From Methanothrix sp. (GTDB lineage Archaea; Halobacteriota; Methanosarcinia; Methanotrichales; Methanotrichaceae): a stretch of 64,000 bases of DNA. The stretch spans positions 1 to 64,000 of the forward strand of contig JAXGJB010000001.1 in NCBI GenBank assembly GCA_040770465.1, in the 5' to 3' direction. Position 1 is the stretch's first letter. Each line of letters opens with the position of its first letter. The position numbers and the translations under genes were made by a program. This document shows positions 10,339-32,975 of this stretch, piece by piece. The notes beneath the pieces are model-generated. The model was given only the letters and a program-made list of their open reading frames with translations, had not been told where the DNA came from and did not search any database.

Positions 10339-10407
10339 GAGTTCTCCATTTCCTCTATCGATGATAAATTTGACCTGGATATTGAATGATGGAGAAGAGA
10401 CGAGATG

Positions 10408-15576: not shown

Positions 15577-18500
15577 CTACAGCTGATTCGTTGGCAGGTC
15601 TGTAACCCAATCAAGTGGCAGGCTCAGATTTGAGAGTCGAAGGAGCGGCATAGACTGAACCGTTAGATTGGAGAGGAGGGTCAGGTCGAACTTCAAGATA
15701 CCCTTCTTTCCCTCATACGGCGAATTCTCCTCGAACCATCGCAAGATCTCCTGGGATAGTTCGCTGACGAAGGATCCGGATGTATCTTGGTCACTGGAGC
15801 GTCCCCTCCGCGGGACCGACGGGTCGAAGGAAGAGGACGGAACGAAGAGGACCGGCAGGGTCACCCATGGAAGCTCGGAGTTCACCCGATACTCGTAGCT
15901 GCACTCCAGTTGGAGGGAGAATGAATCCTTCGATCCAGCCGTTTGGTTCTTAAAGAGGTTCTCGAATAACGAAGAGAGATGCTCGGCCAGCCTCCGACTA
16001 ACGGGCTCTCCGTCAGGAGAGCCGACGAGCGAGATGTCTATCAGATCGTCCGATCTCAGCTTCGGTCGGTGCGGGTTTGCGAACTGGATCTCCGAGGTCC
16101 TGTATACGAAGGGACTCGCGGTCTTCCTCTCAGGGACTAGCGTTTCGTTCCGGCTGAGCCAGGAGGTTGACCGAGCGCTCTGCTCTTCCATCACGTTGAT
16201 CTGCGGCAAAGTGACTGTACGGCCCGGAATGGCCCGTCCCAAAGAAGCGGTAAGATACTTCCCATCATCATGGGATCTGAATACATAATCGATCTCTGAA
16301 TCGTTACTTGGAAGTTGGACTGTATCGTATTCTCCGATGGCCACCTTCGGCAAATCAATTCCAGATGGCCAATTTCCGTTAAGATTGACTCTGACCATCA
16401 AAGCCTCCACCGCCGTTCCGTCGGGATCGCTCATCGACTTAGACATCTCTTTTATGGAGAATTCGCACGCGTCTACAAAATCCCGCACATTATCGAAGTC
16501 GCCGGCAAACTTTGTGATATCGTTCAGTGGTGCCCACGCTTTGGCCACGCGGCCAACGAGGTTCACGAAAGATTCGAGAGCTTTCAATGCCGTGGATCGT
16601 TCTCCGTCCTTGGCCGATTTGTCGATCTCGCGCAAAACCCCGTCAAGATCCTTCGCCACAGCAGGGTAGACAGTAACAAACTCTGCAAGAGCGGGGAAGA
16701 CGTCGTCCATCGACTGAGACAGAGCTCTAGACGCCGGCTTAAGGTTGAAGACCACTCTGAACGAAATATCGTCCTGAGGCTCGTGGTAACTCTGACTGTA
16801 AACGAAGGAGTAATCCCACATCACAGCCTTGTCGATATTAGATGCGTTGATATCGTCGGAGCTGGGCAATCCGGTCTGGCCGATCATAGATGGCGGCGTT
16901 GGAATGGCACGGAGCACCAGCGGCACGTCGAACTTGCCCAGATACCTCTCCAGCGAGAAGTCGCCGTCACCTTCCGGCAGGTTCACAAAGGAGAGCCACG
17001 ACGATGCCTCGTAATTGTATATCCCAGGCAGCTCGCCGATTTCATGTTCGATGTTCAGCCCCCGGAACGAGAGGTCCAACGGCACGTAGCTCTGCATCGG
17101 GCTCGAAGGATCGTCTCCCTGTTTTGTGTCTTTCGTCTGCATCAAGAACGTCAGGTTTTCCGTTCTGTTCTCGAGCACGAGTTTCGCCGTCGTCAGAGAT
17201 ACGTCTCCGTTTTGGGATTCGGTGTCATCTTCTGGAACTGGCGCGCCGTAGATGCGAGGTGGATTGGGGTCGTCGGGTTGAGGAACTCCGGTGTTGACGT
17301 CGGCCTCGAACTGGATGACGGCGTTTGTGGAATAGGCGTTCGAAAGACGGACCAGAAGCTGCTGTCTGAACGCCTCCCTTGCCTCTTCATCCTGGCCGTC
17401 GCACAGCTCGTCATCAAAGACCGGAATCAACAGATCGCTTATAGACTCTGCCAGTGATTTCTTGTATTCTAGCAGCGTTCCGATCAGATCCTGCTCACCG
17501 TCGACCATCAAAAGACGTGCTGGCGAGATGTACTCCGGCATGAGGAACTTGTCGACCGCCGCCAGGAACTCCCGGACCCAAACGTCCATATCGATTCCAA
17601 CAAAATCAAGAGTCCGTGTCGGATCGCTGAAATCTATCTCGTTGCCTGAAATGTAGTCGTAGATGGGCACACCCAACCGCGACTCTGGCTTGTTTGAGAT
17701 CGGCTTTGGTGCAAATATCTTCGGGGAGCCGGGGTTTTTCACGGAGTAAGAGATGCCGTTTGCGCCCAACCTCACAGCCCAGATCGATTTCGAACTCGAG
17801 GACGTTCCAACCCGTTTTCTGTCGGTGCCTGTGGCGACTTTGAGCTGATACGATCCGGGCAGGTTCAGAGCCTCCTCAAAATTCAAGGCGAAGACCCTCA
17901 TCGAATACGGATCGACAGCAGCGTCGGTCTTTTTAACGGCCGGGTGGATCGGAGTCGCGACGGAATAGACCGATTCGGCATCTTTGAGGTCAGACTGCAC
18001 CTTTGCCACAGGCCGCTCCATCTTCATCGCGACGGTCAGCTCGAATATCTGGACAGTGTTCAAGGCGAACCCGTTCTCGGTCACAGACGCGCCTTTGGCG
18101 ATCGGAAACACTATATCGAGATCCCCCGGAGTCACTTCAGAAGAGTCTACCAGAACTATATCGGAGAGGAACTGATATATCGTTTCGATCCAGTCCATCA
18201 GATCCTGCGACTGTCCCGCCGACAGCTCGATGGAGCTTGGCTCTAGCAAGCTCGTCTCCACGGATATCTTGACCGGCTCGGGCTCGGGGTCGGAGCCGGC
18301 GGTTTGTAGCAGCTGATAGTATAGCTGTTTGTATACTCGCAGGTCTTGCTCAGCTTTACTCTGTTTCGGATTTTCGCCGCTTTCGGTCTGAACATCAACG
18401 TCTTCTGATGATGAATAAACAGTCGGATCAAAAGCTAGGGTGATGGTCAGATTCGCGCTGTCACCACCATTGAGGACCTTGTAAGAGCTGGAGACGTTCG

Positions 18501-21500
18501 GCCATCTGCCGAGGCCGATCAGCTGATCGGTGTAGCCCACCAGAATGGGCTGGTTGTTTGCCGGTGCGCCTTCGTCCAGCGACGGGTCCGAGAGAGGCGT
18601 TCGAGCTACGTTGCCGAAGATGTCCTGCCAGCCGAAGTTCACCTGCAACAGGTCGCCTATTCCGAGATACGGGCTATCTTTGGGGTCGGGCATATCGGCG
18701 TTTGCTTCGAGACCCTCATCCTCCGCAAAGCGGGGGTAGGGGAGTGCCTGGTGGTACTTCCAGAGCCCGTCATCTGTTTTTGGTGGCACGGGCTCGCGAA
18801 TCTTCCGTCCTGAAACCGCATCGACCGGCGTTTCCACGGGACCCATCGGCAATCCCCAGTCGCTCTTGCCGAAATCAAGGTTCTCGAAGACGCGGTACCC
18901 GAGCATCGAGAAGGTCTGTTGGAGATACAGCTGGCCGAAATCCTCGTCGGCTCTCGGATCATCCGGCGCTTCAGCAGAGACTATCCGTTTTGCTCCGATC
19001 GGTGTCGCGCCGGCAGGTACAGTGGCAGTTTTCATATTTGGCCCGCCACTGATAGAAAGCTGACTCTCGGCGCTCATCAGGCCCTTCGTCGACTTGTTAT
19101 CTTCTGCCAGGTCAGAGATCGAGCAGCCGTAGAAGGATGCGAGGCTGGCATAGGTTCTGCCGCCCTGGCCGACTCCAACTGTAGCTTGGATCTGCGGGAG
19201 ATGAATCGCATCGTAGGCGACCAACAAGCTCAGCGGGCTCGTCACGCTCATGAGCCCTTTCGTCGACTTGTTATCTTCTGCCAGATCACTGACCGAGCAG
19301 CCGTAGTAGGTGCCGAGCTCTGCTAAAGTTTTGTCTCCTGGCCCCACTCCGACATTCACGTTAATGGTTGGAAGGTTGATCAACTCGCCAATTGTAAGCT
19401 CTTCAGGCCACGGATCTATATTGGGGTTTGCCGCTTTGATATTCTCTTCTGTGGTTTTGAAATAGGCTGCGATATCTGGCAGTTTGCAGCCGGGCGATTT
19501 GGACCTCACCTTGTAGGTGCCCCTCAAAATATCGACAGTCTTCCCCTCGGTCAGGAGATGGTCTTTGTTGGCCTGGGCCAGTTCGGCGAGAGGGATTTGA
19601 TAATAATCGGCGATGCTGGCCAGCGAATCATCGGGGCCAAGTTTGCATTCAAAAACCCTTCGGGGGTTAGCTTCCCTGATCGCCTCTTCTGTTGTTTTGA
19701 AGTAGGCTGCTATATCCGAAAGTCTGCCGCCAGGGCTTGTCCCGATGGGGCTGACCATGTAAGTTCCAGAAGAGACGATCACAGCCTTCCCATCTACGAG
19801 CGGATGGTCCGGATTGTCCTCGACCAGCTCGATCGGAGTCATGAAGTATCTTTGGGCGATATCGGCCAGGGATTCGTCAGACGTGGGCGCACATTCGAGA
19901 TTCAACGGTTCCGCCATTGCGAAGACCACCGACCTCGATGGGTCGATAGAATCTCCGGTCACGGCACAGTTCATGTAGCTTGCAACTCCATTCTCCTCGG
20001 TGCCGTCGGGCTTTGCATAGATAACCAGCAAGGAGATGGTAGCGTCGCCCTTGTCGTTGAAGATGCTCTCAGGGAAACCCGATTCGCCGTCGTAGTTGTA
20101 GTAGAGATAGTATCCTCCAGAACGGGTAATGCTGTTCTCCCACAACATCCTGATGAAATCGTAGGCTGTGTCCAGGCACCCCTCCGTTTTGTGCCGTTGT
20201 TCGTCTGCCTCAGCCAAAGCCCGCAGGGCCCGCTGTAGAGTCTCAGGCGGGCGGGTCTCCGTGGTCAGGTTCACCTGGCTGATGAACATGATGATATCTC
20301 CACCTTTGTCCGACTGGAGAGATGGAGTGACGCTTCCGACGGGGCTATGCCGATAGAGCAGCTTCAGGTCGAGGATAGTTTTGTCGCTATCATGAATCTC
20401 CTGGAGTAGCCGCTCCAAAAGCAGTATTCCTCGCTCGTTTGCGCCAGCCAGTTCATAAGTGGTCCGAGTCGATGGGCTCTCAGAAACCTGCTCGATCTTC
20501 TTAATGCCGACCTCTATGAGGGTTCCCCAGCCGTACGAATTCACCTGGATTTTATCCATCTCGGACGTCGCTTCGTTGTAGGTTCCGACCTGGATGGACA
20601 TCTTCGGCAGGACGTCTCCTGTCCTCGAATCGGATAGGTCCATCAGGCTCGCCGGAAGTGACCAGATCCGCAGGGATTGCTTTTCGCCCGATTGATCGGA
20701 GTAGGGCAGGTCCACATCATCCGGGCTGTGCCAGAGGGTGACTGAGGTGAATGGGTAGGTCATGGGCTGTGAGCTGTAGACCTGTTCAGATCCAAGCTCT
20801 TCCAGCTTGGGAACGATGCCGGCCTCTACCGCCTTTTGGACCGAACTCGCCCGAGATGCATCGTCTCCTTTCACTGTGACCTTCAGCTCGTTTTCGCTCT
20901 CCCCGGCCTGAAACTCTATCCAGCTCGAGTCATCCCCTTTAACGAGGGAGAAACAGAAGTTATCGTCGGTGAGGGTCGGGATCGGGAACTGCTGGCCTGT
21001 GAGGGCGTAAAGACCCGCCTCTTCAGGCCATCCGGAACTATCGTCTTTGAAGTCGATGCCCGCCGTCGGAAGCCTCATTCCGTGCAAGAGGTATCTTGAA
21101 GCCATGCCAGAAAGGTGCTGTAGCCCCTTTGTCCTCTGGATCTCATCGATAAGCTCGCAGACCCGGAACCGTTCCAGGTGGGGGACGTTCAGGCACTGGG
21201 CTTCAGATGACGTCGAGAATAGGTCCTCTACACCCAGGTTGCCTGTGGCCGCTGCCAGCTGCTTTACGGGGATGTCGTACACGGCTGCTATGCTCGCCAA
21301 GGTGTCGCCCTCGTTGGTGGTACGGGTTATCGTCGGAAGAGACAGCAGACTCGAAGTGACCAAGACCCCTGGTTTATCTTTGAGGTCTGAGTTTGTGATT
21401 AGTTCCTTCAGCGAACAGCCAAAAATATCATCTGAGATCGATTGTAATGTATCCCCGTTCTGGATGACATATTCCGGCTTTTCTCCGTAGGTCACAGTCA

Positions 21501-24500
21501 TCCCCGGTGTCAGGATGTTCTCGGCGGAGGCGTTGGCTGATGCTAGCGTCTCGGTCGTGGAGTGCTCGTCCCTTGCGATGGAGGATAGGGTATCACCACC
21601 CTGCACCTGATATGTCAACCCTTGGATCTGAATATTCTTGTCGGGGTTTAGAGGGTGCTGGCCGTTGGCCTCGAAGAGATCCTCCGCTTTGAAGTCGTCG
21701 GAACCTGGTGCCATCTGGTTGTTGACCCAGTCGACGATGCCCTGGACCGTCTCATGTTTTGCGGGGTCAACTACGGAGGTTCCTATGAGGTACTGGAAGT
21801 TGCGGAGGCCGTCCCGGGCGTTCTGGACCATCTGGCGGGCCAGGAGGAGGAAGTAATCTGCAAAGACGAACGAGGCCATCGACCGGCCGGGAGATTCGAG
21901 TTCGCCGCGTGCAAGAAGGCGGCGGTCCGACCCCTTCTCCATCTCCTCTTCCACCTGGACCGCAAGTCTGTCAAAACGCGTTCGTAAGTCATCTCGATAT
22001 TGGTCTCCCAGGGAGTTGAACTCGGAGAACTTCCATTCCAGATCTCCGGAGCCGTTGTACGATGGGACCTTCAGGGTGAGATCTGGCGGCATCGGGAATA
22101 CTGCAGCGTTCGCGTCTCCATCATCATCTTCGTACGTCACCTCCAGACTGAAATGGGCTTTCATGAACTCGATCGCATCGGAGTCTTCGATCGGAGTCGA
22201 GTTCTTCGAATCGGAGAGATAATCCATCATCGAGAGAAGCTCGTCGTCGGATACGACGTAGGCGTTGATCTCATCCTCGTCCATCCCATGATCTTGGGCC
22301 GCTGCGACGGTCCAGCGTAAGACATGTTTGCAGAGCTTCTCAAAGGAGGTATCTTTGTCCAGCTCATCTTCAGCAGAAGGTGATGTCGACTCGATCAACA
22401 GCATTGGGACATAACACGCGTGGGGACCTGTAACGCCATGGATCTCGTCGGCCGAGGCGGACAAGACTGGAACGAAGTACGCATTCAGGCCCTCGGTCGT
22501 TGTGGCCTTGTAATTGTTCCAGTTCATCTCGGATATGTCCAACCCGAGACAGGCCAGCGGCAGTGGGGCCCTCAGCCTGAGATCGCGCTTCGCCTGCTGT
22601 TCCATCTCGGATCTGTCTGCCAAAGTCCAGGGTGGGGTGCCGGAGTTTTTGATGGTGAAGGTCTCTTTGATCCGGGCGGAGAAGCTGAAGTGTATCGTGA
22701 TCTTGAAGAGGCCGCAGTTGATCTTTATCGACAAAGATACGTCGACAGAGGCGATGACGGAGATGGGTATGTCCTTATAGCATTCGTAAGTGATCTGGGC
22801 TACGAGGGATACGGTGACGTTGACGTCGGCCTTGACGATCCCAAAGTCAATGCCGCCGAAGAGCTTTCCGATGATTCCCAGGGTCCCCTGGAGCCAATAG
22901 TAGTACTCTCCGTTGTCAGGTCCCTCGTAAGGGTTCCAGCGGGCGATGACGCCCTCGACGATCCCCACCATGGTGATGCTGAAGCCGGCTCGCAGTATCC
23001 CCTTCTCGATGTACTTTCCGACCCCAAGCTGCAACCCCAGGCCGAAGATGATGACGGGGTTGAAGGTCCCGTTGGTGACGGCAGGCACCTGGTTTGAGGT
23101 TGCGCTGCTGAGCTTGCCGAAGTAGATCCCGCCGGAGCCGATGACGGGCACAAAAGAGATCTGGGCCTGGATCGTGAAGGACCGGGAGAAGTCAAGTTTC
23201 CATGGGAAGCCGACGTCCACCTTGAAGTCGCCGTTGGTGTAGAGCTCTATGGCGAAGACTGGGAGGGTGATGTTGAAGGCCCCCATCTGGAAATTGCGCA
23301 TCTTGTCGGGGAGCTGGATCTGTGCCGAGTAGACCCCCACGGTCTCGCTGATCCGGCGGTACATTATCTCGAAGTCGAGGCCAGCCAGGATCTTCGCCGC
23401 AGGTCCCGCAAGGGCGACCCGGAGGGCGTAGATGTTGGGATCGTTGAAGATGGTCTGGAGAGTCAGGAAGTAATTTGAAGTATCTCCCACCCTCAGAATC
23501 CCGAAGTCGGTGGCCACCATCCACGAGTTCTCGGGGCTGAAGGTGACGGCCGGAAGCTGAGCGGGCGAGGGGACCGGGAGCGTCTCGATCTTCTTGATCG
23601 CGTCTCCCACCGACTTGCAGTCCGTGATCCCTTTCACCTCCACGTGCTGGCCTAAGGCGAGGAGGCGGAGGTCGAAGTACTTGCTCCCGGCGCCGGGGGC
23701 CTCGGGCGGCTTCTCGTTGAGGAGGTCCCAGCCACCATCGTACTTCTTCCCCAGGAAGCTGCCGACGATCTTGATGTCGACGGTATCTTCGCCGTCCCTC
23801 TTGACGTAGGTGAGGCCGATGGAGGTGATCTTTATGAAGTTCAGGTCTGCGTTTATTATGCAATCGAAGCCGACGGTATTCTTGGTGAGGTTGATCCTCA
23901 AGACCAGGTTCTTGAGGTCGATCTGGTTGAGGACGTTCCAGGGGGGGTCGAGCTCGAAGTCGAGGTTCGGGTCCACCAGGTGGACGAGGAATTCCAGTAT
24001 CTCGCCGAAGGTGACGCCCCCCAGGCTGACGGTGAGGACGGTATCATTATCTTTGTTCTTGCTGACGGCACAGACGAGTTGGAAGCCCTTATATTCGATC
24101 TGGAATGTGACGGCCTTCTCGGCGGCGTCGAAACTATATTTAGCTAACACGTTCAACTCATTCACTTTTATGTTACCGCTGAGATAGCCGGAATAAGTAG
24201 GGGCAGTGTCTGGGGTCTTCCGGTGGGACTGGACGGAAAATTCCGCATCAAGAACCCATGTAAATTCTTCCAATGATAAGGTCCAGCCCACTATAGTGTC
24301 GAAAGAGAACTCTTTTGTCTTCGTGTCGAAGGAAGCCGAAAGCGATTCCATTCCTATGTTGCCGATCGATCCGGGCATATTCGGCCATTGGCCTGGGAGG
24401 AGCTTATCCACTAAATTTTGCAGAGTTAGGTTCAGATTCTCCGTCTTGCCCTCAAGCTTTAACCCCCCGCCCGCGCCATCGTATTTTGCTCTGAGCAGTA

Positions 24501-25647
24501 TTATTATATCTTCTATCTCGAAGGTTGCGGAGAAGTCGGCGTCCACCTTCCCACGGGCTACACACACGTCGGCGGAGAGGTCTGATATCTTCAGGGCGGT
24601 TTTGGTGTCGATCTCCATCCCTATATTAAAATTATAAGAATTATCAGATATATTCGCCAAAAGTCCGAACCGGTATACATCTATCTCAGGGAAGCCGGCG
24701 GGGAGAGCGATATTGAAGTATTCGAAGATGCTCTTGATGTTGACGACGGAGCCTTCAGGAAGGCTCGCCCATACGATGAAGTTATCTTTTGCAAAGTGCG
24801 CGCCAAGACTTAAGGGAACTGTCGCAACCTCAAAAGTCGCGACAAGCTCGATATAGCTTCTGTTGAAGTTGTTGAAGTCGACCGCAAAGTTGAGCCTGGT
24901 ATCCCCCTTTTTGACTTTAATTATATTGAATATGCTCCACGCGTCGCTGTATTCGATGACGAAGTAGGTGCGGGAAAGGGCCCCCTTCGAGGGATCAAAT
25001 GCCAGATCGATCCTACTTAATCCGAACTTGGTGAGGGCGTTCAGGGGCGACGGCAGGAAGGTCGTCAGGTCCATCCCATTGGAGAGGGCCGAGAAGGTCT
25101 CCGGGGTCAGCGGCCTCGAATCGAAGTCGCCAATGAGGATCCAGTCCGTCTTTTGGCTTGGGATCTGCAGCCTGATTGGCAGGCTGAGCTGTCCCCGCTT
25201 TCCGATCAAAAGGTCGCAGCCGATGGACGCGTGATAGATCTTCAGATCAGAATCAGGCTCGAAGACCATCACCATATTCTCCATGGAAAAACCGCTCAAT
25301 AACTCCCACTGCGTCCCTTCCGGGGGGCTCAGATCGATCGTCACCAGAAAAGGACCCGAAAGGTTGTCTGGGTCCTCCGGCTTGAACGTCATGGTGACGG
25401 CCATGCCAGCGATATCGAAGAAGACTGCATTGCCTGTAACCGTGGCGGTCTTCTTTTCGTCGTCAACGGTGCCGCTTTCTGTTATGACGGTGAGGGGAGA
25501 TAGGCCCAACTCATCGAGAGAATCGATCAGGTCGGGCGAGACGGTGTCGCGGCTGACAGTGAAGGTTTCGCCCTTCTTTAAGCCCTTGACCAGGGCTGAA
25601 AGGTCGTCGTAACTGGCAACTTTTTCTGTGGTCAACATATCTCTCAC
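15577..25647 (-). CDS. Giant (~3350 aa) multi-LysM protein with a long beta-strand-rich N-terminal region
   Basis: Uninterrupted 10-kb ORF. Likely start is ATG 25638 after a GGGGTGA SD. LysM-like motifs include YQVQGGDTLSSIA, YVIQNGDTLQSIS, GDTLASIAAVYDI, DESLADIAQRYF, DSLASIADYYQI and DIAAYFKTTEENIKAANP. No obvious signal peptide. Confidence 0.9.
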   Translation of the reverse strand: MRDMLTTEKVASYDDLSALVKGLKKGETFTVSRDTVSPDLIDSLDELGLSPLTVITESGTVDDEKKTATVTGNAVFFDIAGMAVTMTFKPEDPDNLSGPFLVTIDLSPPEGTQWELLSGFSMENMVMVFEPDSDLKIYHASIGCDLLIGKRGQLSLPIRLQIPSQKTDWILIGDFDSRPLTPETFSALSNGMDLTTFLPSPLNALTKFGLSRIDLAFDPSKGALSRTYFVIEYSDAWSIFNIIKVKKGDTRLNFAVDFNNFNRSYIELVATFEVATVPLSLGAHFAKDNFIVWASLPEGSVVNIKSIFEYFNIALPAGFPEIDVYRFGLLANISDNSYNFNIGMEIDTKTALKISDLSADVCVARGKVDADFSATFEIEDIIILLRAKYDGAGGGLKLEGKTENLNLTLQNLVDKLLPGQWPNMPGSIGNIGMESLSASFDTKTKEFSFDTIVGWTLSLEEFTWVLDAEFSVQSHRKTPDTAPTYSGYLSGNIKVNELNVLAKYSFDAAEKAVTFQIEYKGFQLVCAVSKNKDNDTVLTVSLGGVTFGEILEFLVHLVDPNLDFELDPPWNVLNQIDLKNLVLRINLTKNTVGFDCIINADLNFIKITSIGLTYVKRDGEDTVDIKIVGSFLGKKYDGGWDLLNEKPPEAPGAGSKYFDLRLLALGQHVEVKGITDCKSVGDAIKKIETLPVPSPAQLPAVTFSPENSWMVATDFGILRVGDTSNYFLTLQTIFNDPNIYALRVALAGPAAKILAGLDFEIMYRRISETVGVYSAQIQLPDKMRNFQMGAFNITLPVFAIELYTNGDFKVDVGFPWKLDFSRSFTIQAQISFVPVIGSGGIYFGKLSSATSNQVPAVTNGTFNPVIIFGLGLQLGVGKYIEKGILRAGFSITMVGIVEGVIARWNPYEGPDNGEYYYWLQGTLGIIGKLFGGIDFGIVKADVNVTVSLVAQITYECYKDIPISVIASVDVSLSIKINCGLFKITIHFSFSARIKETFTIKNSGTPPWTLADRSEMEQQAKRDLRLRAPLPLACLGLDISEMNWNNYKATTTEGLNAYFVPVLSASADEIHGVTGPHACYVPMLLIESTSPSAEDELDKDTSFEKLCKHVLRWTVAAAQDHGMDEDEINAYVVSDDELLSMMDYLSDSKNSTPIEDSDAIEFMKAHFSLEVTYEDDDGDANAAVFPMPPDLTLKVPSYNGSGDLEWKFSEFNSLGDQYRDDLRTRFDRLAVQVEEEMEKGSDRRLLARGELESPGRSMASFVFADYFLLLARQMVQNARDGLRNFQYLIGTSVVDPAKHETVQGIVDWVNNQMAPGSDDFKAEDLFEANGQHPLNPDKNIQIQGLTYQVQGGDTLSSIARDEHSTTETLASANASAENILTPGMTVTYGEKPEYVIQNGDTLQSISDDIFGCSLKELITNSDLKDKPGVLVTSSLLSLPTITRTTNEGDTLASIAAVYDIPVKQLAAATGNLGVEDLFSTSSEAQCLNVPHLERFRVCELIDEIQRTKGLQHLSGMASRYLLHGMRLPTAGIDFKDDSSGWPEEAGLYALTGQQFPIPTLTDDNFCFSLVKGDDSSWIEFQAGESENELKVTVKGDDASRASSVQKAVEAGIVPKLEELGSEQVYSSQPMTYPFTSVTLWHSPDDVDLPYSDQSGEKQSLRIWSLPASLMDLSDSRTGDVLPKMSIQVGTYNEATSEMDKIQVNSYGWGTLIEVGIKKIEQVSESPSTRTTYELAGANERGILLLERLLQEIHDSDKTILDLKLLYRHSPVGSVTPSLQSDKGGDIIMFISQVNLTTETRPPETLQRALRALAEADEQRHKTEGCLDTAYDFIRMLWENSITRSGGYYLYYNYDGESGFPESIFNDKGDATISLLVIYAKPDGTEENGVASYMNCAVTGDSIDPSRSVVFAMAEPLNLECAPTSDESLADIAQRYFMTPIELVEDNPDHPLVDGKAVIVSSGTYMVSPIGTSPGGRLSDIAAYFKTTEEAIREANPRRVFECKLGPDDSLASIADYYQIPLAELAQANKDHLLTEGKTVDILRGTYKVRSKSPGCKLPDIAAYFKTTEENIKAANPNIDPWPEELTIGELINLPTINVNVGVGPGDKTLAELGTYYGCSVSDLAEDNKSTKGLMSVTSPLSLLVAYDAIHLPQIQATVGVGQGGRTYASLASFYGCSISDLAEDNKSTKGLMSAESQLSISGGPNMKTATVPAGATPIGAKRIVSAEAPDDPRADEDFGQLYLQQTFSMLGYRVFENLDFGKSDWGLPMGPVETPVDAVSGRKIREPVPPKTDDGLWKYHQALPYPRFAEDEGLEANADMPDPKDSPYLGIGDLLQVNFGWQDIFGNVARTPLSDPSLDEGAPANNQPILVGYTDQLIGLGRWPNVSSSYKVLNGGDSANLTITLAFDPTVYSSSEDVDVQTESGENPKQSKAEQDLRVYKQLYYQLLQTAGSDPEPEPVKISVETSLLEPSSIELSAGQSQDLMDWIETIYQFLSDIVLVDSSEVTPGDLDIVFPIAKGASVTENGFALNTVQIFELTVAMKMERPVAKVQSDLKDAESVYSVATPIHPAVKKTDAAVDPYSMRVFALNFEEALNLPGSYQLKVATGTDRKRVGTSSSSKSIWAVRLGANGISYSVKNPGSPKIFAPKPISNKPESRLGVPIYDYISGNEIDFSDPTRTLDFVGIDMDVWVREFLAAVDKFLMPEYISPARLLMVDGEQDLIGTLLEYKKSLAESISDLLIPVFDDELCDGQDEEAREAFRQQLLVRLSNAYSTNAVIQFEADVNTGVPQPDDPNPPRIYGAPVPEDDTESQNGDVSLTTAKLVLENRTENLTFLMQTKDTKQGDDPSSPMQSYVPLDLSFRGLNIEHEIGELPGIYNYEASSWLSFVNLPEGDGDFSLERYLGKFDVPLVLRAIPTPPSMIGQTGLPSSDDINASNIDKAVMWDYSFVYSQSYHEPQDDISFRVVFNLKPASRALSQSMDDVFPALAEFVTVYPAVAKDLDGVLREIDKSAKDGERSTALKALESFVNLVGRVAKAWAPLNDITKFAGDFDNVRDFVDACEFSIKEMSKSMSDPDGTAVEALMVRVNLNGNWPSGIDLPKVAIGEYDTVQLPSNDSEIDYVFRSHDDGKYLTASLGRAIPGRTVTLPQINVMEEQSARSTSWLSRNETLVPERKTASPFVYRTSEIQFANPHRPKLRSDDLIDISLVGSPDGEPVSRRLAEHLSSLFENLFKNQTAGSKDSFSLQLECSYEYRVNSELPWVTLPVLFVPSSSFDPSVPRRGRSSDQDTSGSFVSELSQEILRWFEENSPYEGKKGILKFDLTLLSNLTVQSMPLLRLSNLSLPLDWVTDLPTNQL

Positions 25648-25652
25648 CCCAA

Positions 25653-27107
25653 TTATATGAGATACACCTTAAAATTATGGAATGGGCAATTTTGACGGCC
25701 ACAAGCCGCAGGCGTGGTGTTGTTGCACATCATTATATTGCCCCTGACCCGCGGGTTTTCCCCGGATCTTGGACCACTCTCTGCGGTGGCACTCACTTGA
25801 TTTTGAACCGGCCCCCACCCTTTGGATGTATACTTCTGTATGGCATTTTGGCTCGGATGATTGTAACAATGGGTCACATTATCTGGCATTATGCCGTAAG
25901 AATATGCTATGCGGCCCAGGTTAGTCGCTCTTGGTCGTGGTATACGATTTGTATCCAATTTACTGTTCGAGCCGTGATGAGGAGCCGTGATCCAGTCATA
26001 AGCTACATCATCCACACCGCGAATAAATTGGAAAGTAGCGTCTCCTGGTAGCAAAACCCATCTCTCATCACCATCTTGCCCAGTATTTACCGCAACGGCC
26101 AGCCCAGAATCATTCATAGTATTGCCGTTGCATTTTATAATTTTAATTCTATTATTTGTACTTTGAAGTGGGTTAATTCTATTAGCTGGCCATACGTGAA
26201 CGTTTTGCAATCTTGATAATACATTATTCCCAGCAGCGCCAATTCGTTGACGAGGCACCACCCAAAAAAGGTCACACAATGTGGCTGTATTAAGGGAATA
26301 TTCGACCATAAGGCAATGGTCCAAATCCCAATGCGAAAGTACCACGAAGGGATTGTTTACCAAACAAGGCCCGGGGTTTATTAATCCATAATTTTGGACG
26401 CTAGGCTGGTATCGACTAGTCGGAAGACCTACATCTGAATAAAATATAGGATTTCCATCTATATCGTAAACCAGATTGCACGCCGCCTGGCCGACGTCCA
26501 TCACCCCTATAGCATGGGGAATTTGAGCTCCCATTTTATCTAATATTTTATTTTCGAAAAACGAACCCTCAGACAGAAATTTTTTCTTGAGTCTCACTTC
26601 ATTTTCCCAAGTTACTGGTTCCCCTTTAACGCCAGTATCTACAGGATTACCTTCATATTCTACGCGACTCCGTTTGGCACTCATCCCCCTCCCGTTAGAG
26701 ACCCTCTCCGCGGGCTTTGGGCTCCCCTCCTCCAAGGGCTCGATATCTTCGAGGATGTACCACTCCCCCTCATCGATTTCGCCTACTTTGATGTTGAGGG
26801 CCTGAGCAAAATCTCTCGCCTTTGTTTCGTCGGTCTCGATCAGGGAGGCGGGTGAGATGGGCAGCGGCGACTTGGAATCCCAGATCTCTGATGGAAGACT
26901 CTCGATCCACTCATAGGGAACTATCTCGAATAATGCGGTCCAAGTCTGGTCTTCGATCGGCATGTCCTTGGGAGATACGTCCTCAACCTTCGAGAGGAAC
27001 GCGTAATACCTGCACTTCGGAGAGTCCAATACGTTGAATTTCTCTCCCTGATCCGAGATCATTCCAAACAGTTTGCCGATATTTTCCGGCATATTTGACA
27101 TATTCAA
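25653..27107 (-). CDS. Metallo-beta-lactamase-fold hydrolase (ComEC/Rec2-like) with an unknown N-terminal domain
   Basis: DVGQA, SDVG, VLSHWDLDH, NDSG, LLPGDA, APHHGS, SYG and YNHP occur in the canonical ComEC-MBL order; likely start ATG 27101 after GAGGTTGA. Confidence 0.85.
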   Translation of the reverse strand: MNMSNMPENIGKLFGMISDQGEKFNVLDSPKCRYYAFLSKVEDVSPKDMPIEDQTWTALFEIVPYEWIESLPSEIWDSKSPLPISPASLIETDETKARDFAQALNIKVGEIDEGEWYILEDIEPLEEGSPKPAERVSNGRGMSAKRSRVEYEGNPVDTGVKGEPVTWENEVRLKKKFLSEGSFFENKILDKMGAQIPHAIGVMDVGQAACNLVYDIDGNPIFYSDVGLPTSRYQPSVQNYGLINPGPCLVNNPFVVLSHWDLDHCLMVEYSLNTATLCDLFWVVPRQRIGAAGNNVLSRLQNVHVWPANRINPLQSTNNRIKIIKCNGNTMNDSGLAVAVNTGQDGDERWVLLPGDATFQFIRGVDDVAYDWITAPHHGSNSKLDTNRIPRPRATNLGRIAYSYGIMPDNVTHCYNHPSQNAIQKYTSKGWGPVQNQVSATAESGPRSGENPRVRGNIMMCNNTTPAACGRQNCPFHNFKVYLI

Positions 27108-27122
27108 TCAACCTCGAACGCA

Positions 27123-30100
27123 TCAAATTGTACGAACTCCCTCGCCGATCGCTTGAGGAGACGTGCCTTCGTTCATCATGCTATCCTTTGACTTTTTGTA
27201 CATCGCATACCACCCAAGGCCGCACCCTCGGGCCTTGGCAGCTGAGTCTCCGAAGAGGTAGAAGCTGGTGGAGCCGCCTGGCGGAATCTTTGCGATCCCC
27301 AGGAACTTGAGGGCGATATCGGTGAGGGTGAGGATGAACGCCTCTTTCTCTCCCGTATCGTCCTTCACATACGCCAGCCTGATGTCCCCGATGGAGAGCT
27401 TGAGGACCCCCTGGAGGTCGAGGAGCTTTGCGCCGCCGCCGGTTCCGGGAAGCTTGATCCCGATGAAGACGTTGTAAGAATCCGAGTCGCTTTGGCTTCC
27501 TGCGCTCCAGGCGAGGAGGAGGCTGGAGGTGAGGCTCACCTTCCCAGCCAGCTCGCCGGGGGTCCCCATGTTAAGCCGGAACTTGAACCCCTGCCAGGAG
27601 CCGGATGGCCCCGCCTGTTTGAGGGCCGTTCCCACCTGCAAAAACCCTCCATCGGCGGGTTTTGTCTCAGAGGTTCCGTTCACAAACCCCTCAAATACGA
27701 GGGCGAAGTCCTCGAAGAGGGAGGCCTTTCTGGGGGTGCTCTTCTCCAGGCTGAAGGCGATCTTCGAAGGGTCGAAGGTGAACTCTTTCTTCGAGGGTTC
27801 ATCCTCGGGATATGTCATGTTCAGGCCCAGCCCAGAGAAGCTGAGCCCTTTTCGAGGATCGTCCTTCCCATCGTCGTTTCCGAAGGAGAAGAGATCAAAA
27901 TTCCTCAATTCCTCGCCCTTCTTCTCCTTGAGGATTTTGAAGTCGATATACCCGGTGAACTCGAACCGCGTGGAGACCTCCATCCTGTCGTCATTCTCGC
28001 CGCCTTCGCCACCGTTTATCTTGTTCTTTCCCATGGTGTTGAACTGGGCTTTGGTGATCTCGACCTTATGGAGGACGTTGCTGTCGAAGTAGAAGGAGTT
28101 GTCATCGACGGTGTCGAGGACGTAGACCGTCTCATCGCCGTGCTGCTGGCAGGAGCCGTTGAGCAGGATGGCGTTGTAGAGCTTCTTCGGATCACCCGTG
28201 GAGGTCACCTGATGGTCGAAGATCTTGTTTATCGTCAGCTGGGCCAGGCTCTCGAAGTCCTTGATCGCAGAGTTCTCGAAGAGCACCTTGAGCGTCAGAA
28301 CCCTGAAATCGTAATCTGCCCCAGGCGTGGGCGGGATCTGACTGCCTGATCCGTCGTAGTTGGGGTCCGCATAGTAGATCAGCCCGAACATGGAGCTGGT
28401 CTCTTTGATTTCAATCGCTTCTCCATCAATCTTGTTACCCTCGATTCCTATATGGTGGACGTTGAAACGGTCGAGATCAATCCCGCTCAAAAGCCCCTCC
28501 AACTGTGATGGAAACTGGTCGAGGTCGATGTCCACCTTCAGGGCGAGAATACCTTTCCAGTCCTCATTATTTATTATATCTATAAAGTTTGTGAAATAAC
28601 CGCCATCTTGGCGTTCTGCGTCGGCGATGTAGTCCTGGAGCCACTGCGAGACGGCCTCCGGTCCTCCGATGCTCGCGTCGTTGAACTTATCAGCATCAGT
28701 CCATTTTTTCGGGTTCTTCACCCTGTCTGCGAGCTTGCCCTCGCAGAACTTGAATATCAGGACGTTGTGATAATCGTTGAAGCTATTCTTCTCTCCCGCG
28801 TTGATCTCGAAGGTCCAGTCCCCTATGGAGATCGTGTTATCAAAAGTCACCTGGTCGGTATCTGGATCAGCCCCAATTTTGGACTTCAGATTCCACTTGG
28901 CGACGGGATCGGTGACCACCAGGAACAGCTGATTAGTCTGAAATGCCTTTTGCAATGTGGGGTCGAGATCTTCAAACTGCAAAGACTCTTTTTTCTCCAG
29001 ATTCTTGGCGAGCAGAAGTGAGCTCCAACTTCCATCCGACCTCACGTATGATATTAACCCCTGGGGAGTGGTCGCAGGCGTGGGCTCAGATGGATCCTCT
29101 CCAGCCGTGGTCCGATAGCCAGCCTTTTCCGCCTCGTCGTTGAAAAGGATCTGGCCTCTGCGGAACGGACTTATTATATGGAATTCGAAATTGGGGATAT
29201 CGTCCTTCGAAAAGCCGTCCTCATCGTCGGGATGGGGCGCCGTGGATGCGTAAGGCACGATCGGATAGGCCGTATCCTCGCCTAGCTGGGCTGACGGTGT
29301 TTGATGGTGGCCGAGAAAACTCTGCGGACTATCGGCGCCATCGTTCTTGGCATAAAGGGGCGCTCCTTGTGGCTGGGAGAAATAAACGTTCATTTCGTCT
29401 TTCGAAGGAGAAGTGACCTTCATCCAGGAGGTGGTGTAAGTTTTATCTAAGAGCGGCTTGGACTCGGAGGGGTCCGGATCGTCGAGAGTGGCCTCTTTGA
29501 TGGGAAAGGCCGGAGCGTACGCCTCCCGATCAGGGCAGAAGGTTACAATGTCGTTCAAGTGGAAACTGATGGACTCGAGCCCTGAGAGGCCACAGAGCAG
29601 CTGGGGAAAAGGACGATCGGCGGTCGGGTGAAACTTCGACGGGTCTTCCAGGCCGATGACGTAATCGCCAGACGGCGTCAGATAGAGGGTATCGTCCTGC
29701 GGTTTGGGGGGGTCTTGAAGTCTGGTCTTGTCGGCTGAGAATACCAGACTCGATTCGTTCGGTTTCGGGGTGAGGGTGACCACGTGACCCAGATCGAGCC
29801 GGAACCATGTGGTAAAAGTTGGCGGCAAGATTCCGCCATAACCGACGAAGGTGAAATTAGATCTCACATGATCGAGAGGATGCATAGGATCCAGGCTGAC
29901 CCTGAAGAGGATGGGATTGGTTGTGGGCAAGCCAAAGACGGGATATAGCTGAGAGCATATATCTTCATCCTCGTTTTTGTAGAAATATTTCAGGCCGACG
30001 CTGACGGTCTCAAATTCGTTGTTTTGCGCGTCCACCCTCAGGCTGGCATCAAATTTCAGGGTTCCTGGCGCAGTTCCCGTCAAGGGTATACAGACATAAG

Positions 30101-30713
30101 GTGTATCATCATTTGGCGCCACTTCTCCGAAATATATGGACCCAATCGCGTTATAGAGCTTGACATATACACCAGGAAGCTGTTGCAACAGAAATTGCAC
30201 ATTCTCCGAATCGAGGGATATTTTGACCCCCCCATCTAATCGAATCTGTATATTTTTTAATTTAATCCAGCCCTGTCCTTTGATGTCTACGACCTGTCCA
30301 CTATCAACAGAATTCGGTTTTTTTTCGATAGGTATGTATTGCCCTTTTAGGTCGTCAGAATTCGGATTTTCAAACCAGAAGATATAGCGATAATAATCTC
30401 CGTAAGTCCCATTCAGCCGAACTAAAAAAGCCTTGAGTTTCTCCATGAAATTGCCGTTAAGTTCCGGTTCTTCACCACAAAAGAGGTAACATCCCCCATT
30501 CCTATAATTGGGTCTGCTGCGCGCTCGTGATGTCCCCCGCCTCGGTAAACCCCAATAATCTGTCCACGACTTCTCAAGGCTCAAATTTGGCCCACCATCT
30601 TCGGAGAGGAGATAGCCCAACCAGACGTCCCCCTCCAAGCCGTGGCCATAAAGATAGGCACCAGAGTACTCAGCCAATTTTTGAAAAAATTCAGGATCAT
30701 TCATGCAAGACAC
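27123..30713 (-). CDS. Large hypothetical protein (1196 aa), beta-rich, first gene of the LysM operon
   Basis: Long uninterrupted ORF with a 15-bp gap to the next gene; ends GVLKLSIGDI...LGWYAMY; no recognised catalytic motif or signal peptide. Confidence 0.85.
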   Translation of the reverse strand: MSCMNDPEFFQKLAEYSGAYLYGHGLEGDVWLGYLLSEDGGPNLSLEKSWTDYWGLPRRGTSRARSRPNYRNGGCYLFCGEEPELNGNFMEKLKAFLVRLNGTYGDYYRYIFWFENPNSDDLKGQYIPIEKKPNSVDSGQVVDIKGQGWIKLKNIQIRLDGGVKISLDSENVQFLLQQLPGVYVKLYNAIGSIYFGEVAPNDDTPYVCIPLTGTAPGTLKFDASLRVDAQNNEFETVSVGLKYFYKNEDEDICSQLYPVFGLPTTNPILFRVSLDPMHPLDHVRSNFTFVGYGGILPPTFTTWFRLDLGHVVTLTPKPNESSLVFSADKTRLQDPPKPQDDTLYLTPSGDYVIGLEDPSKFHPTADRPFPQLLCGLSGLESISFHLNDIVTFCPDREAYAPAFPIKEATLDDPDPSESKPLLDKTYTTSWMKVTSPSKDEMNVYFSQPQGAPLYAKNDGADSPQSFLGHHQTPSAQLGEDTAYPIVPYASTAPHPDDEDGFSKDDIPNFEFHIISPFRRGQILFNDEAEKAGYRTTAGEDPSEPTPATTPQGLISYVRSDGSWSSLLLAKNLEKKESLQFEDLDPTLQKAFQTNQLFLVVTDPVAKWNLKSKIGADPDTDQVTFDNTISIGDWTFEINAGEKNSFNDYHNVLIFKFCEGKLADRVKNPKKWTDADKFNDASIGGPEAVSQWLQDYIADAERQDGGYFTNFIDIINNEDWKGILALKVDIDLDQFPSQLEGLLSGIDLDRFNVHHIGIEGNKIDGEAIEIKETSSMFGLIYYADPNYDGSGSQIPPTPGADYDFRVLTLKVLFENSAIKDFESLAQLTINKIFDHQVTSTGDPKKLYNAILLNGSCQQHGDETVYVLDTVDDNSFYFDSNVLHKVEITKAQFNTMGKNKINGGEGGENDDRMEVSTRFEFTGYIDFKILKEKKGEELRNFDLFSFGNDDGKDDPRKGLSFSGLGLNMTYPEDEPSKKEFTFDPSKIAFSLEKSTPRKASLFEDFALVFEGFVNGTSETKPADGGFLQVGTALKQAGPSGSWQGFKFRLNMGTPGELAGKVSLTSSLLLAWSAGSQSDSDSYNVFIGIKLPGTGGGAKLLDLQGVLKLSIGDIRLAYVKDDTGEKEAFILTLTDIALKFLGIAKIPPGGSTSFYLFGDSAAKARGCGLGWYAMYKKSKDSMMNEGTSPQAIGEGVRTI

Positions 30714-30787
30714 GTCCTTCTAATATTATTCTGATTGATACAAAATGCTGATTGAGACGATGGCGTGCTATGGGTAACTCGTCCCGG

Positions 30788-30800
30788 TTGTTTATAACGA
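30788..30800 (-). promoter_or_regulatory. Candidate archaeal TATA box for the three-gene operon
   Basis: The minus strand reads TCGTTATAAACAA about 80-90 nt upstream of the 1196-aa gene start. Confidence 0.4.
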
Positions 30801-30836
30801 GATCGAGGGCTTGGCTAAAGACCGATTTGAGAGATC

Positions 30837-31100
30837 TCAACAGCAGACGCAATCGAAGACCTCCGATTCGACCCAGGTTTGGTCGTATGCCAGCTCAACA
30901 TCTGAGTATCCACCGATACAACAGTCGAGCCAGTTCATCTTATTTACTTTCTTCGAATAGTTAGACTCCATCCCTATCTTTCTGGTTATGTCGTAAGTCC
31001 CGAGATACCTCTCCTCACCGTAGTTGACCTCGGCTCCGTCGGTCCCAGGTCTGCAGATATCTGAAATCGGCGATGTCTGTGGAATGGGATTGGACCTCAT
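30837..31100 (-). pseudogene. Probable C-terminal fragment of a Cys-tailed secreted-protein family gene
   Basis: 87 aa, no signal peptide; EERYLGTYDITRKI...WLDCCIGGY...VFDCVCC recalls C-termini of Methanothrix secreted proteins (from memory, unverified). Confidence 0.4.
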
Positions 31101-32284
31101 AACCCGGCAACGTGTATGAATGCATCTGCATAATCGTCATCTGTCTCAGCTCTCATCTGTATCTTGAACTTGCCGTCATCGTTATCGTCAGGAGTTTTAT
31201 CGTCGTTTGCGTTTGCTTCGCAGCTAAATTCGCCATCGAGGACCCCATCTAGGTTAGCCTCAGTGGAGCTTCCCATTGAGGCGGTTGTCATGCCCTGGAA
31301 TTCCGTTTTTGTGTTACCTGTTGCGGGATTGGCATATAACGATACACTGCTATGTTCTTCGTCGCGAACGAATCCGGGAACGCCGGGATGAAATTCCTTC
31401 GACTCGCTCTGTATATCAACCACGCCTCCTTCGGCTACCAAATTCTGCCAAGTGGCGGACCCATCGCCATCAGTTCTGACACAGGATTCGGAATTCAGAT
31501 ATCCATCAGACACATGGCTATAGGCCTGGATGTAATCATCACCTGGCTGCCAATCCGTTCTGGGATCATAATAAAATCCATCAGTCTCGCTCCCCACATC
31601 GCTACCCTGAGCGTAAGACTTTTGGCATGCTTCTGCGCCCTCTCCATCTGCATGTCCTTTCCCAGAGAACAGAATTTCACCATCGAAAACCCAGTTGTAA
31701 GTAGTGGCTGAATATCCCACCGGGTTGTATGTCAAAGTCTCCAAGTAAGTTTCGGAGCCTGCCGACTCTGTATCCTGGGTTACTTCTGCGCTGTTCCTCG
31801 TACTGGCAATCATACGGCTCTCGGTTCTGCCGTCGAACGCCTCCACTTCAGTTGAGGCCCAGTTTCCATCTGGATCGGTAGCCTCAATGTTGAGAAGGCC
31901 ATATTCACCTTCAAAAATCGCGTTCTGAGATGCTTGGAAGCTATCGGAATTTAAGTTTGCATTGCTGGTCATTTGGATCGAGGCATTGTCCGTCTCAAAA
32001 CAGCTCCGACCAATATAACCGCCGCTCCCCGTATATCTCTGGACTGCGGTGACTCCTCCATGACCTGTTATGATCCTGGAGTCTTTCATACCAAGATCAT
32101 TGAAGCTCGCTGAAGCTTTTCCGCTTACTTCGACACTGTCATCAACCTGGTAGGAGTCCCAGATGCTGACGGAGTTTCCTCCACCATCGCTCGCTGAAAA
32201 GCATATATCAATAGCATTGGCACTATGGGCCATGAGAATGAACGCTATTAACGCTATTAATACTAATCCAGATTTATACTTCAT
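31097..32284 (-). CDS. Secreted hypothetical protein, acidic and beta-rich
   Basis: Signal peptide MKYKSGLVLIALIAFILMAHSANA; GAGAGGA SD; BRE/TATA-like AAAAGATTTATTAA upstream; loose internal repeats. Confidence 0.8.
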   Translation of the reverse strand: MKYKSGLVLIALIAFILMAHSANAIDICFSASDGGGNSVSIWDSYQVDDSVEVSGKASASFNDLGMKDSRIITGHGGVTAVQRYTGSGGYIGRSCFETDNASIQMTSNANLNSDSFQASQNAIFEGEYGLLNIEATDPDGNWASTEVEAFDGRTESRMIASTRNSAEVTQDTESAGSETYLETLTYNPVGYSATTYNWVFDGEILFSGKGHADGEGAEACQKSYAQGSDVGSETDGFYYDPRTDWQPGDDYIQAYSHVSDGYLNSESCVRTDGDGSATWQNLVAEGGVVDIQSESKEFHPGVPGFVRDEEHSSVSLYANPATGNTKTEFQGMTTASMGSSTEANLDGVLDGEFSCEANANDDKTPDDNDDGKFKIQMRAETDDDYADAFIHVAGL

Positions 32285-32355
32285 TGATCATCCTCTCATA
32301 TCTGAAGTTTGTTGGAGAATGATCATTAATAAATCTTTTGGATATCGGCTAAACA

Positions 32356-32470
32356 TGTAGAGTCCTGACACTTATCTCGCACCCCATCTAAGCCTGGAAT
32401 CATATTCCGGGATATGAAACTGAACAAGACGAAGATTCGTTGGATCATTCGTCAGAACCGCAATGAGGCA
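32356..32470 (+). mobile_element. IS481-family-like left end and truncated transposase start
   Basis: TGTAGAGTCCTGACACTTATCTCGCACCC (5'-TGT end), then ATG 32414 encoding MKLNKTKIRWIIRQNR, resembling N-termini of methanogen IS481-type transposases. Similarity ends after ~16 codons; no right end seen. Confidence 0.55.
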
Positions 32471-32975
32471 GCGATCTCGGTAGCAAGTCCGGTGAGATTG
32501 GCTTGGTCAAAGAGGCTATAGTAAGTCAATCTTGATATCTGATCAGATCTAGGTAATGCGCGATTTGTGTGAAAAATGGTGAGATTATGTAGCTTAAGCT
32601 CCTTAGCCGATGACCGATGGAATCTCTTGGAAAAATACGATATTAGACCGATATTAGACCGATTTTAGCCAGAGTTAAGCATCTATATCTTCTATTTTTA
32701 TTTTATATTTACTGTGGCGACAAAATAAAGAAAAAGCTAGCAAGCCAATAATTCAAGGGGATCGGACGAGAGCCTCTAAACTTTTCGCCTCAATTCGCGT
32801 AAGGCGAGATTCCGCTCTCGGGCTTACATTTTGGCCACCATCCTTAGAGAGTGCACGCCACGTCTTTCCGTCCAGCATCTCGCAGACGACGACGGCCGGG
32901 GCGACCTTTGCGACCCGCCACCGGTCCTCCTTCGGTCCTCCTTCGGTTCATTCGCCCTTCTGTCATCCGTTCCCG

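Follow-up and report, generated by a model that had tools for sequence, protein, structure and literature searches.

The serA-rfk island and its head cassette

The window, that is, the whole stretch of 64,000 nucleotides analyzed here (positions 1 to 64,000 of contig JAXGJB010000001.1, assembly GCA_040770465.1, from the archaeon Methanothrix sp.), contains a 17.4-kb island inserted between serA (13835-15610) and the CTP-dependent riboflavin kinase gene rfk (32976-33473). The present study focuses on one gene of this island, which codes for a two-domain protein with a C-terminal part of the metallo-beta-lactamase (MBL) fold, and on its partner, a giant gene whose open reading frame (ORF) starts 5-14 nt after the MBL stop codon. 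A sequence-only reading had described the MBL gene as a compositional chimera, in which a conserved N-terminal loading domain bears a recently exchanged enzymatic domain, the swappable effector tip of something akin to a polymorphic toxin. The observation on which that reading was built is confirmed, and its interpretation is partly supported. The enzyme position of the island is truly swappable, being occupied by an MBL, an endonuclease/exonuclease/phosphatase (EEP)-family or a DUF4135 protein, but the unit swapped between enzyme types comprises the whole MBL gene together with ~640 codons at the start of the giant gene, and not the C-terminal two-thirds of the MBL gene. The features concerned are the following, where GC3 stands for the G+C content of third codon positions.

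15611..32975, no strand assigned: inserted island, 17.4 kb between serA and rfk
23706..27196, minus strand: head cassette, without nucleotide homology to the island of congener G001; MBL gene and first ~640 giant codons
25653..27107, minus strand: gene of the two-domain protein (putative N-terminal docking domain and ComEC-type MBL-fold hydrolase), 484 aa, or 482 aa from ATG 27101
26736..27107, minus strand: N-domain (aa 1-124), GC3 ~0.69
26508..26735, minus strand: linker region (aa 125-200), which holds the GC3 change point and is of three sequence types among close alleles
25656..26507, minus strand: MBL-fold catalytic domain (aa 201-484; fold match 194-482), GC3 ~0.39-0.45, candidate metal-site motifs all present, with HxDxDH in place of HxHxDH
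15577..25647, minus strand: giant gene, 3356 aa; LysM domain (aa 1346-1385), with additional partial matches to LysM
24088..25632, minus strand: aa 6-520 of the giant protein, an all-beta N-terminal module with homology to the start of ~1450-aa DUF6603 proteins of bacteria

Comparison with congeners yields direct evidence, of a kind rarely available, that a cassette has been replaced at an orthologous site, and maps its borders. The genes rfk and serA are adjacent, 120-245 bp apart, in congeners G006, G008, and G012, and congener G001 carries a homologous island at the same site, with identities of 54% for the island gene g395, 61% for g1196 and, over the whole blastp alignment, 59% for the giant. 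Nucleotide homology to G001 stops sharply at window position 27196 and resumes as sharply at 23706. Identity between the giants of the two islands is ~20% as far as aa ~620; over the next ~500 aa (aa ~640-1160), it is 52-100% in 40-aa bins. The slot occupied by the MBL gene in the window holds in G001 a 298-aa ORF (277 aa on record) accompanied by a different giant module; this protein and some of its homologs are named EEP by their sources, PF03372 is found in 5 of 120 listed homologs, and a PDB sequence search returned chance matches only (E of at least 0.1). The corresponding slot of G119, which belongs to another genus, codes for a 625-aa DUF4135 protein (E 3.4e-25). No extra ORF lies between enzyme and giant in either slot. 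An N-domain shared by these two enzymes was considered and rejected, as the N-domain hidden Markov model (HMM) gave no match in either of them. As for distribution, a search of 60 further related genomes, including 15 from the same genus, did not find the MBL enzyme, and the C-terminal part of g1196 is present in 4 of the 105 genomes of the family, including the window's own.

Two observations can be added on the site itself. The rfk-serA gap is an insertion hot spot, empty in three congeners and filled by an island of 16-17 kb in the window and in G001 (C1, L076). Nucleotide homology to G001 is also missing at ~30501-31203, which comprises the 5′ end of g1196 and an 87-aa ORF at 30837-31100.

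The two-domain protein and its giant partner

The likelier start of the MBL gene is ATG 27101, 9 nt past a GAGGT and used as the start by the relatives on record as well. The C-terminal part adopts a ComEC-type MBL fold, an identity confirmed by the predicted fold only. The AF2 model, based on 27 homologs, has a pLDDT of 86.2 and a pTM of 0.87, and residues 194-482 have their top structural match in the beta-lactamase-like domain of Moorella glycerini ComEC (PDB 9ic4; Foldseek E 5.3e-6), to which VIA-align superposes 234 of 266 residues with a Z of 15.7, a root-mean-square deviation (rmsd) of 3.6 A and 19% identity. The next VIA-align matches are phosphorylcholine esterase (Z 12.9) and nucleases of the RNase J, RNase Z, and CPSF types (Z 10-12). 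Foldseek returned 19 PDB chains at E <= 0.001, those listed being MBL-fold proteins throughout, and VIA-align 102 chains at Z >= 8. The metal-binding motifs of MBL proteins are D; HxHxDH; H; D; H. All motifs quoted as catalytic in the sequence-only reading are indeed present (DVGQ at 204-207, SHWDLDH at 258-264, NDSG at 332-335, GDA at 355-357, PHHGS at 376-380, YNHP at 415-418), as are the C-terminal CxxxxCxxH (CGRQNCPFH, 469-477) and the low-complexity linker, and we take the set DxGQ / HxxxDH / NxSG / GD / HHGS to be ComEC-like. Residues H259, D263, H264, D356, H377, and H378 are invariant among 27 homologs; position 261 is Asp in this clade (HxDxDH, SHWDLDH), whereas most bacterial homologs have His there (HxHxDH). 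P0057, a weak homolog, is labeled ComEC/Rec2 family by its source. The catalytic domain is a putative metal-dependent phosphodiesterase or nuclease, which would hydrolyze nucleic acid or a phosphodiester.

The first 124 residues make up an alpha/beta domain of their own, followed at aa ~121-135 by an insertion that is absent from bacterial homologs and overlaps the low-complexity stretch 126-141. A word-indexed search yielded 57 homologs, of which ~30 are full-length two-domain proteins at 28-40% identity across many bacteria, the remainder matching the MBL part alone, from residue ~199. An N-domain profile (A3, 15 sequences) scored against 1.84 billion representative proteins matched 63 of them: all 24 proteins of at least 250 aa bear the MBL domain, 39 are stand-alone proteins of 93-231 aa, and none of the 63 is a fusion to another enzyme. 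Among 64 fetched MBL loci, 15 have the N-domain, fused in nine and encoded by the ORF directly upstream in six (L036, at 9974-10402 and 10604-11737; L023, L035, L038, L042, and L043); therefore, the fusion in the window is one of two arrangements, and the claim of a separate N-terminal module is borne out. A DUF6603-type gene lies downstream in 12 of the 15 loci with the N-domain vs. 1 of the 49 without it, several contigs being too short to judge. Moreover, the identities of the N- and C-terminal parts co-vary among 21 distant full-length homologs (Spearman 0.86; 210 non-independent pairs). Together, the fused and stand-alone forms and this co-variation therefore define the N-domain as a distinct module tied to one enzyme family. 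A search of the ESM Atlas with residues 1-170 gave a best score of 0.84, below lead level.

Downstream of the MBL gene, 12 loci that are bacterial or metagenomic and represent several phyla carry a gene for a ~1450-aa protein whose first ~520 aa match aa 6-520 of the giant (HMM E 9.3e-90; 38% identity to L032), and the pairing with an N-module gene is also present in L002, the close relative of the window gene for which DNA is available. The rest of the ~1450-aa L032 homolog is DUF6603 (PF20248; E 3.8e-141), a domain absent from the window giant, searched both whole and as seven segments at E 1. Conserved genes for proteins of ~506, ~288, and ~1063 aa come next in the bacterial operon, in which counterparts of the rest of the giant, of g1196 and of g395 were not detectable. 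The idea that the giant is a fusion of the four bacterial operon proteins (1450 + 506 + 288 + 1063 = 3307 aa) was rejected, since the HMMs match aa 6-520 only. Family scans of six L032 operon proteins returned nothing usable except DUF6603, and none of the island or bacterial operon proteins matches a characterized family. The model of the giant N-module has a pLDDT of 81.9 and was assigned no fold because Foldseek (TM <= 0.27) and VIA-align (Z <= 11.9, rmsd 17-20 A for the top-ranked matches) gave generic beta-barrel and beta-sheet matches. In a sample of 401 genomes of one bacterial order, three carry the module.

The upstream slot varies in bacteria too: in G448, one of these three genomes, it is occupied by a DUF4135 gene (E 3.9e-25) whose product is 35% identical to the archaeal one. 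Module scores follow the enzyme, with 323 bits between the window and L032, both of the MBL type, vs. 59 between the window and G001, and 335 bits between G119 and G448, both of the DUF4135 type. The modules thus group by enzyme and not by host, so that enzyme and module make up one co-inherited head. The enzyme-module pair spans Alphaproteobacteria, Bacteroidota, Acidobacteriota, Actinomycetota, and a methanogen-type archaeon. A full-text literature search found no paper mentioning DUF6603 or PF20248, and the listings and abstracts that a literature search returned contained nothing on this system. In another of the three genomes that carry the module, the slot gene of the DUF6603 operon (L093 8604-14000, G150:C488) codes for an uncharacterized 1064-aa protein; the gene ahead of it encodes 722 aa that include a phage tail collar domain (PF07484, E 1.9e-18).

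Folding of giant aa 1-520 (alignment A2) together with enzyme aa 1-170 (alignment A1) predicts docking of the two, with an ipSAE of 0.71 in three runs, while the best of three controls scored 0.00. No less than 85% of the contacts are common to the runs, and the partner has a pLDDT of at least 79. This ipSAE mark is reached by 116 of 157 solved complexes and by 2 of 215 mismatched pairs, counts that are only rough for this case because own alignments were used. The predicted contacts link enzyme residues 4-25 and 66-83 to giant residues between 43 and 255. Along with the co-occurrence of the N-domain and the giant/DUF6603 N-module, this model supports binding of the former to the latter, in agreement with the loading function first proposed for the N-domain, and provides a concrete testable hypothesis for the attachment of unrelated enzymes to one scaffold.

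The GC3 step and recombination among close alleles

The step in composition reported near codon ~140 of the MBL gene is reproduced by a sliding-window plot. In 30-codon windows, GC3 ranges from 0.57 to 0.83 across codons 1-150 and from 0.20 to 0.50 across codons 141-430, to reach ~0.6 again at the 3′ end, and the best single change point falls at codon 142 (~nt 26682; 0.69 before, 0.39 after; z 6.04), matched by none of 2000 shuffles of codon order. The low-complexity linker EEGSPKPAERVSNGRG, at aa 126-141, lies directly ahead of it. The rise in GC at the start of the giant gene is likewise found, with GC3 values of 0.66-0.74 over the first 150 codons. The first ~400 nt had been called host-like; they do have G/C-ending codons, but their GC3 resembles that of the island and not that of the host, since the eleven flanking genes scored range from 0.68 to 0.89, with nine at 0.77 or above. 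Nor is the step unique within the island, as g1196 has one at its codon 222 (0.45 to 0.70; z -7.1). A compositional contrast like that of the MBL core is also displayed by the EEP-family and DUF4135 slot enzymes (L076 6029-6925; L082 5775-7652).

L002, whose protein is 64% identical to that of the window, has GC3 values of 0.68 in the N-domain, 0.26 in the linker and 0.43 in the C-terminal part; in four bacterial full-length homologs, GC3 is flat along the gene (0.81-0.93). Since it is common to L002, the step is a trait inherited in this archaeal lineage of the gene, which speaks against a recent exchange of the enzymatic domain.

The number of synonymous substitutions per synonymous site (dS), computed by the Nei-Gojobori method for each segment of the window copy vs. 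L002, changes at the same place. It amounts to 0.335 in the last 125 codons of g1196 and 0.276 in the N-domain, rises to 0.854 in the linker, 0.997 in the catalytic core and 0.717 in the tail, and drops to 0.095 in the first 33 codons of the giant gene, whereas dN/dS, where dN is the nonsynonymous counterpart, is ~0.3 in all parts except the linker (0.5). Comparison of nine close alleles as proteins (P0001-P0009) produced mosaic identity tables. The N-domains of P0003-P0005 and P0007-P0009 are 92-98% alike, that of P0006 is 84-87% identical to these, and those of the window copy and P0006 are 82-87% identical to the remaining close alleles. The linker is of three types, the core falls into three groups at ~60% identity, and the tail forms two groups that cut across those of the core. 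P0008, for instance, is 98% identical to P0004 in the N-domain and 57% in the core, and its tail is 95% identical to those of P0005 and P0009. In approximately unbiased (AU) tests, from which P0002 was excluded as nearly identical to P0001, the core rejects the grouping of the tail (p 9e-46) and that of the linker (p 8e-4), and the linker rejects that of the core (p 0.034). For the 15 pairs within the close clade, the identity of one half does not vary in step with that of the other (Spearman -0.10). The two halves had been expected to be incongruent; they are so among close alleles, but co-diverge at the deep scale of the distant homologs.

The GC3 step at the linker coincides with a recombination border. 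Taken together, the dS step, the mosaic alleles and the conflict in the AU tests mean that the term chimera is therefore right in one sense, the gene being pieced together from homologous alleles, with one border in the linker, although the compositional step itself is inherited. For genome scanning, it follows that a GC3 step within a gene can mark a border of allelic recombination instead of a domain fusion. Contigs from four public sequencing runs were also compared with the window, with patchy coverage and uncovered parts that are uninformative. Contigs of run X12 depart from the window sequence at 27192/27196, the cassette border, and at 26741/26776, the border of N-domain and linker; a single contig is involved at each place, so these loose ends are too weak to count and are a mere hint of other natural cassettes.

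Neighboring genes, interpretation, and likeness to known systems

Upstream of the head lie the two other conserved genes of the island.

27123..30713, minus strand: g1196, conserved island gene upstream of the slot, 61% identical to its G001 homolog, with its stop 15 nt ahead of the MBL ORF
31097..32284, minus strand: g395, island gene with an N-terminal signal peptide, 54% identical to its G001 homolog

No family matched g1196, and PHROGs, like Pfam, NCBIfam, and PADLOC, had no usable match for the enzyme, g1196 or g395. The product of g395 is the sole island protein with a signal peptide, a clear one with its hydrophobic stretch within aa 1-30. For the giant gene, ATG 25638, preceded at 5 nt by GGGGTGA, is the probable start in place of GTG 25647. 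The LysM domain of the giant maps to window positions 21493-21612, with partial matches at ~19650-19720 (near aa 1976-2028); the archaeal group of the host is not expected to possess murein. In the serA ORF (13835-15610), the initial 82 codons, which run into the 3′ end of the giant gene, have a GC3 of 0.51 vs. 0.86 in the remainder; serA probably begins further inside its ORF.

These data would be best explained as follows. A docking domain of ~124 aa is joined through a variable linker to a ComEC-type MBL-fold phosphodiesterase or nuclease domain, and most likely clamps the enzyme onto the all-beta N-module (aa ~40-260) of the giant, with whose gene the MBL gene would be co-transcribed. Enzyme gene and module would constitute a head cassette, inherited and exchanged as one unit, while the enzymes borne by homologous islands and bacterial DUF6603 operons would be different ones (EEP family, DUF4135), each matched by a particular variant of the module. 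Within heads of the MBL type, recombination between homologous alleles would shuffle linker, core and tail against a near-constant N-domain, and the GC3 step at codon 142 would be that inner border. The head would then be an exchangeable, probably effector, part of the system. We consider this explanation, taken as a whole, to be probable, with appreciable room for doubt.

The constancy of the N-domain among close alleles, the higher dS of the core and the position of the step at the linker would also be expected of a constant loading domain onto which unrelated enzymatic tips are recombined in the manner of polymorphic toxins, the MBL tip being recent. We hold this to be highly improbable: every fused N-domain protein among the 1.84 billion representatives bears the same MBL domain, full-length two-domain homologs occur across bacterial phyla at 28-40% identity with N- and C-terminal identities that co-vary at the deep scale, the step is present in a relative at 64% identity, and an immunity ORF is absent. 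As claimed beforehand, no small ORF follows the enzyme; there is none in the 5-14 nt between the MBL stop and the giant gene, which therefore leaves an immunity ORF no room. Still less credible is a housekeeping or metabolic hydrolase that sits beside the giant gene incidentally. The enzyme has no secretion signal and no defense or toxin family matched, as would be expected of such a protein, but its gene sits in an inserted island and occurs in none of the 60 related genomes searched, 15 of them of the same genus, its pairing with the N-module gene is kept in 12 bacterial or metagenomic loci and in L002, the two genes lie 5-14 nt apart, the pair is replaced as a unit in G001, and binding between the products is predicted.

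A different account dispenses with exchange within the gene and attributes the step to differing constraints; the 5′ part, for instance, could be subject to codon selection or contain an element acting at the nucleotide level, and a slowly translated toxic domain could have relaxed, AT-drifting codons. It is favored by a dN/dS that is alike in both parts, by the sharing of the step between two alleles with 59% identical cores, and by the three archaeal slot enzymes, which are AT-rich whatever their family, as would fit selection for low-GC codons in the enzyme. A 3.5-fold difference in dS inside one gene, the conflict between segment trees (mosaic P0008; core vs. tail grouping) and the flat GC3 of bacterial homologs speak against it, and we regard it as unlikely.

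Several points nonetheless weigh against the explanation by a docked, exchangeable head with inner allelic recombination. L002 has the same step although its core is only 59% identical, and composition therefore gives neither date nor direction of exchange. The slot enzymes have low GC3 values (0.39 for the MBL core, 0.38 in G001, 0.26 in G119) next to flanks of 0.65-1.0, an AT-richness for which three causes may be considered: a shared gene pool that is itself AT-rich, selection that favors poorly translated codons where the enzyme is dangerous, or conversion, biased toward GC, of often-recombining flanks. The dS step rests on one pair, the other alleles having been compared as proteins, and the lower dS of the N-domain could come partly from selection at synonymous sites. 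The 44-residue tail does not reject the grouping of the core (p 0.21), and the groups submitted to the AU tests were named only after inspection of the identity tables. The designation MBL hydrolase, which the predicted fold upholds, finds no confirmation in sequence profiles, as a Pfam scan returned no family even at E 10, a PDB sequence search (phmmer) no match, and a PDB profile search with the 27 homologs Integrator 11 at E 0.0012 and ComEC at E 0.9 only. The second His of HxHxDH is Asp in this clade, and enzyme activity is therefore presumptive. The docking score comes from a model computed with own alignments and is not a measurement. As regards a conflict role, nothing shows one: PADLOC matched none of the 8 proteins scanned, the locus has no immunity gene, the enzyme has neither signal peptide nor membrane segment (no hydrophobic 19-mer reaches a KD hydropathy of 1.6), and g1196 and the giant lack a signal peptide and have borderline hydrophobic stretches only.

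The locus would be a modular, polymorphic effector locus. Its exchangeable head may serve as the effector of a conflict system, in toxin delivery or in defense, and could act either outward, for example on murein-walled neighbors, or inward, as a defense. A broader proposal, to which we give somewhat less than an even chance, sees in the gene one of the plug-in heads of giant-protein machines that occur in bacteria and archaea and belong to a class not yet described. In such machines, the giant would start with a beta-sheet socket fitting one enzyme family (an MBL nuclease through its docking domain, EEP, kinase-like DUF4135, or others), and socket and enzyme would move as a cassette between domains of life and be swapped at the same chromosomal site within a genus.

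Among characterized proteins, ComEC/Rec2 is the closest to the enzyme in the fold of its catalytic domain, for which 9ic4 is the best structural match. The window protein is unlike it in having no membrane channel, no competence domain (no Pfam match) and no hydrophobic segment, in its length (484 aa vs. 799 and 837 aa for the two ComEC chains listed), and in possessing an unrelated N-terminal docking domain, a C-terminal CxxxxCxxH, and Asp in place of the second His of motif 2. As it has no membrane domain, it is not a ComEC. The likeness of the locus to modular anti-phage systems, including 6A-MBL, lies in a large partner that is conserved and in effector enzymes that can take each other's place (nuclease-like MBL, EEP family, kinase-like DUF4135). 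The NCBIfam match of the window enzyme is in fact NF058524 ("6A-MBL system MBL-fold protein"), but at 12.6 bits (E 0.055) it remains far below the cut-off of 220, and PADLOC gave no match. LysM repeats are not known as a typical feature of modular anti-phage systems.

The uncharacterized bacterial DUF6603 operons differ from the window, whose giant is without a DUF6603 domain, whose island has no detectable counterparts of the three bacterial companions (~506, ~288, and ~1063 aa), and whose module continues into a LysM-bearing backbone of 2800 aa, with g1196 and g395 alongside. What they have in common with it is the gene order, an MBL gene with its N-domain followed by the gene of a protein with matching first ~520 aa, and an upstream enzyme slot that is also variable (MBL or DUF4135).

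Polymorphic toxin systems, such as Rhs, CdiA, MuF, and others (Zhang et al., 2012; PMC3482391), offer another parallel. The window locus departs from them in two defining features, because there are no alternative tips on one N-terminal region, its N-domain being tied to one enzyme family, and no immunity gene after the enzyme; no recognized trafficking domain or signal was found in it, and its variable part consists of the giant N-terminus together with a separate upstream enzyme gene instead of a C-terminal tip. On the other hand, it shares with them a large conserved backbone and an enzymatic module that differs between strains at one locus and is exchanged by recombination at conserved flanks. 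Should the slot enzymes be effectors, the locus would bring a new architecture into the polymorphic toxin and defense repertoire, and would be a new instance of conflict modules transferred between domains of life; if true, the plug-in head would represent a new form of polymorphic effector, one with its variable part at the front and without an immunity gene.

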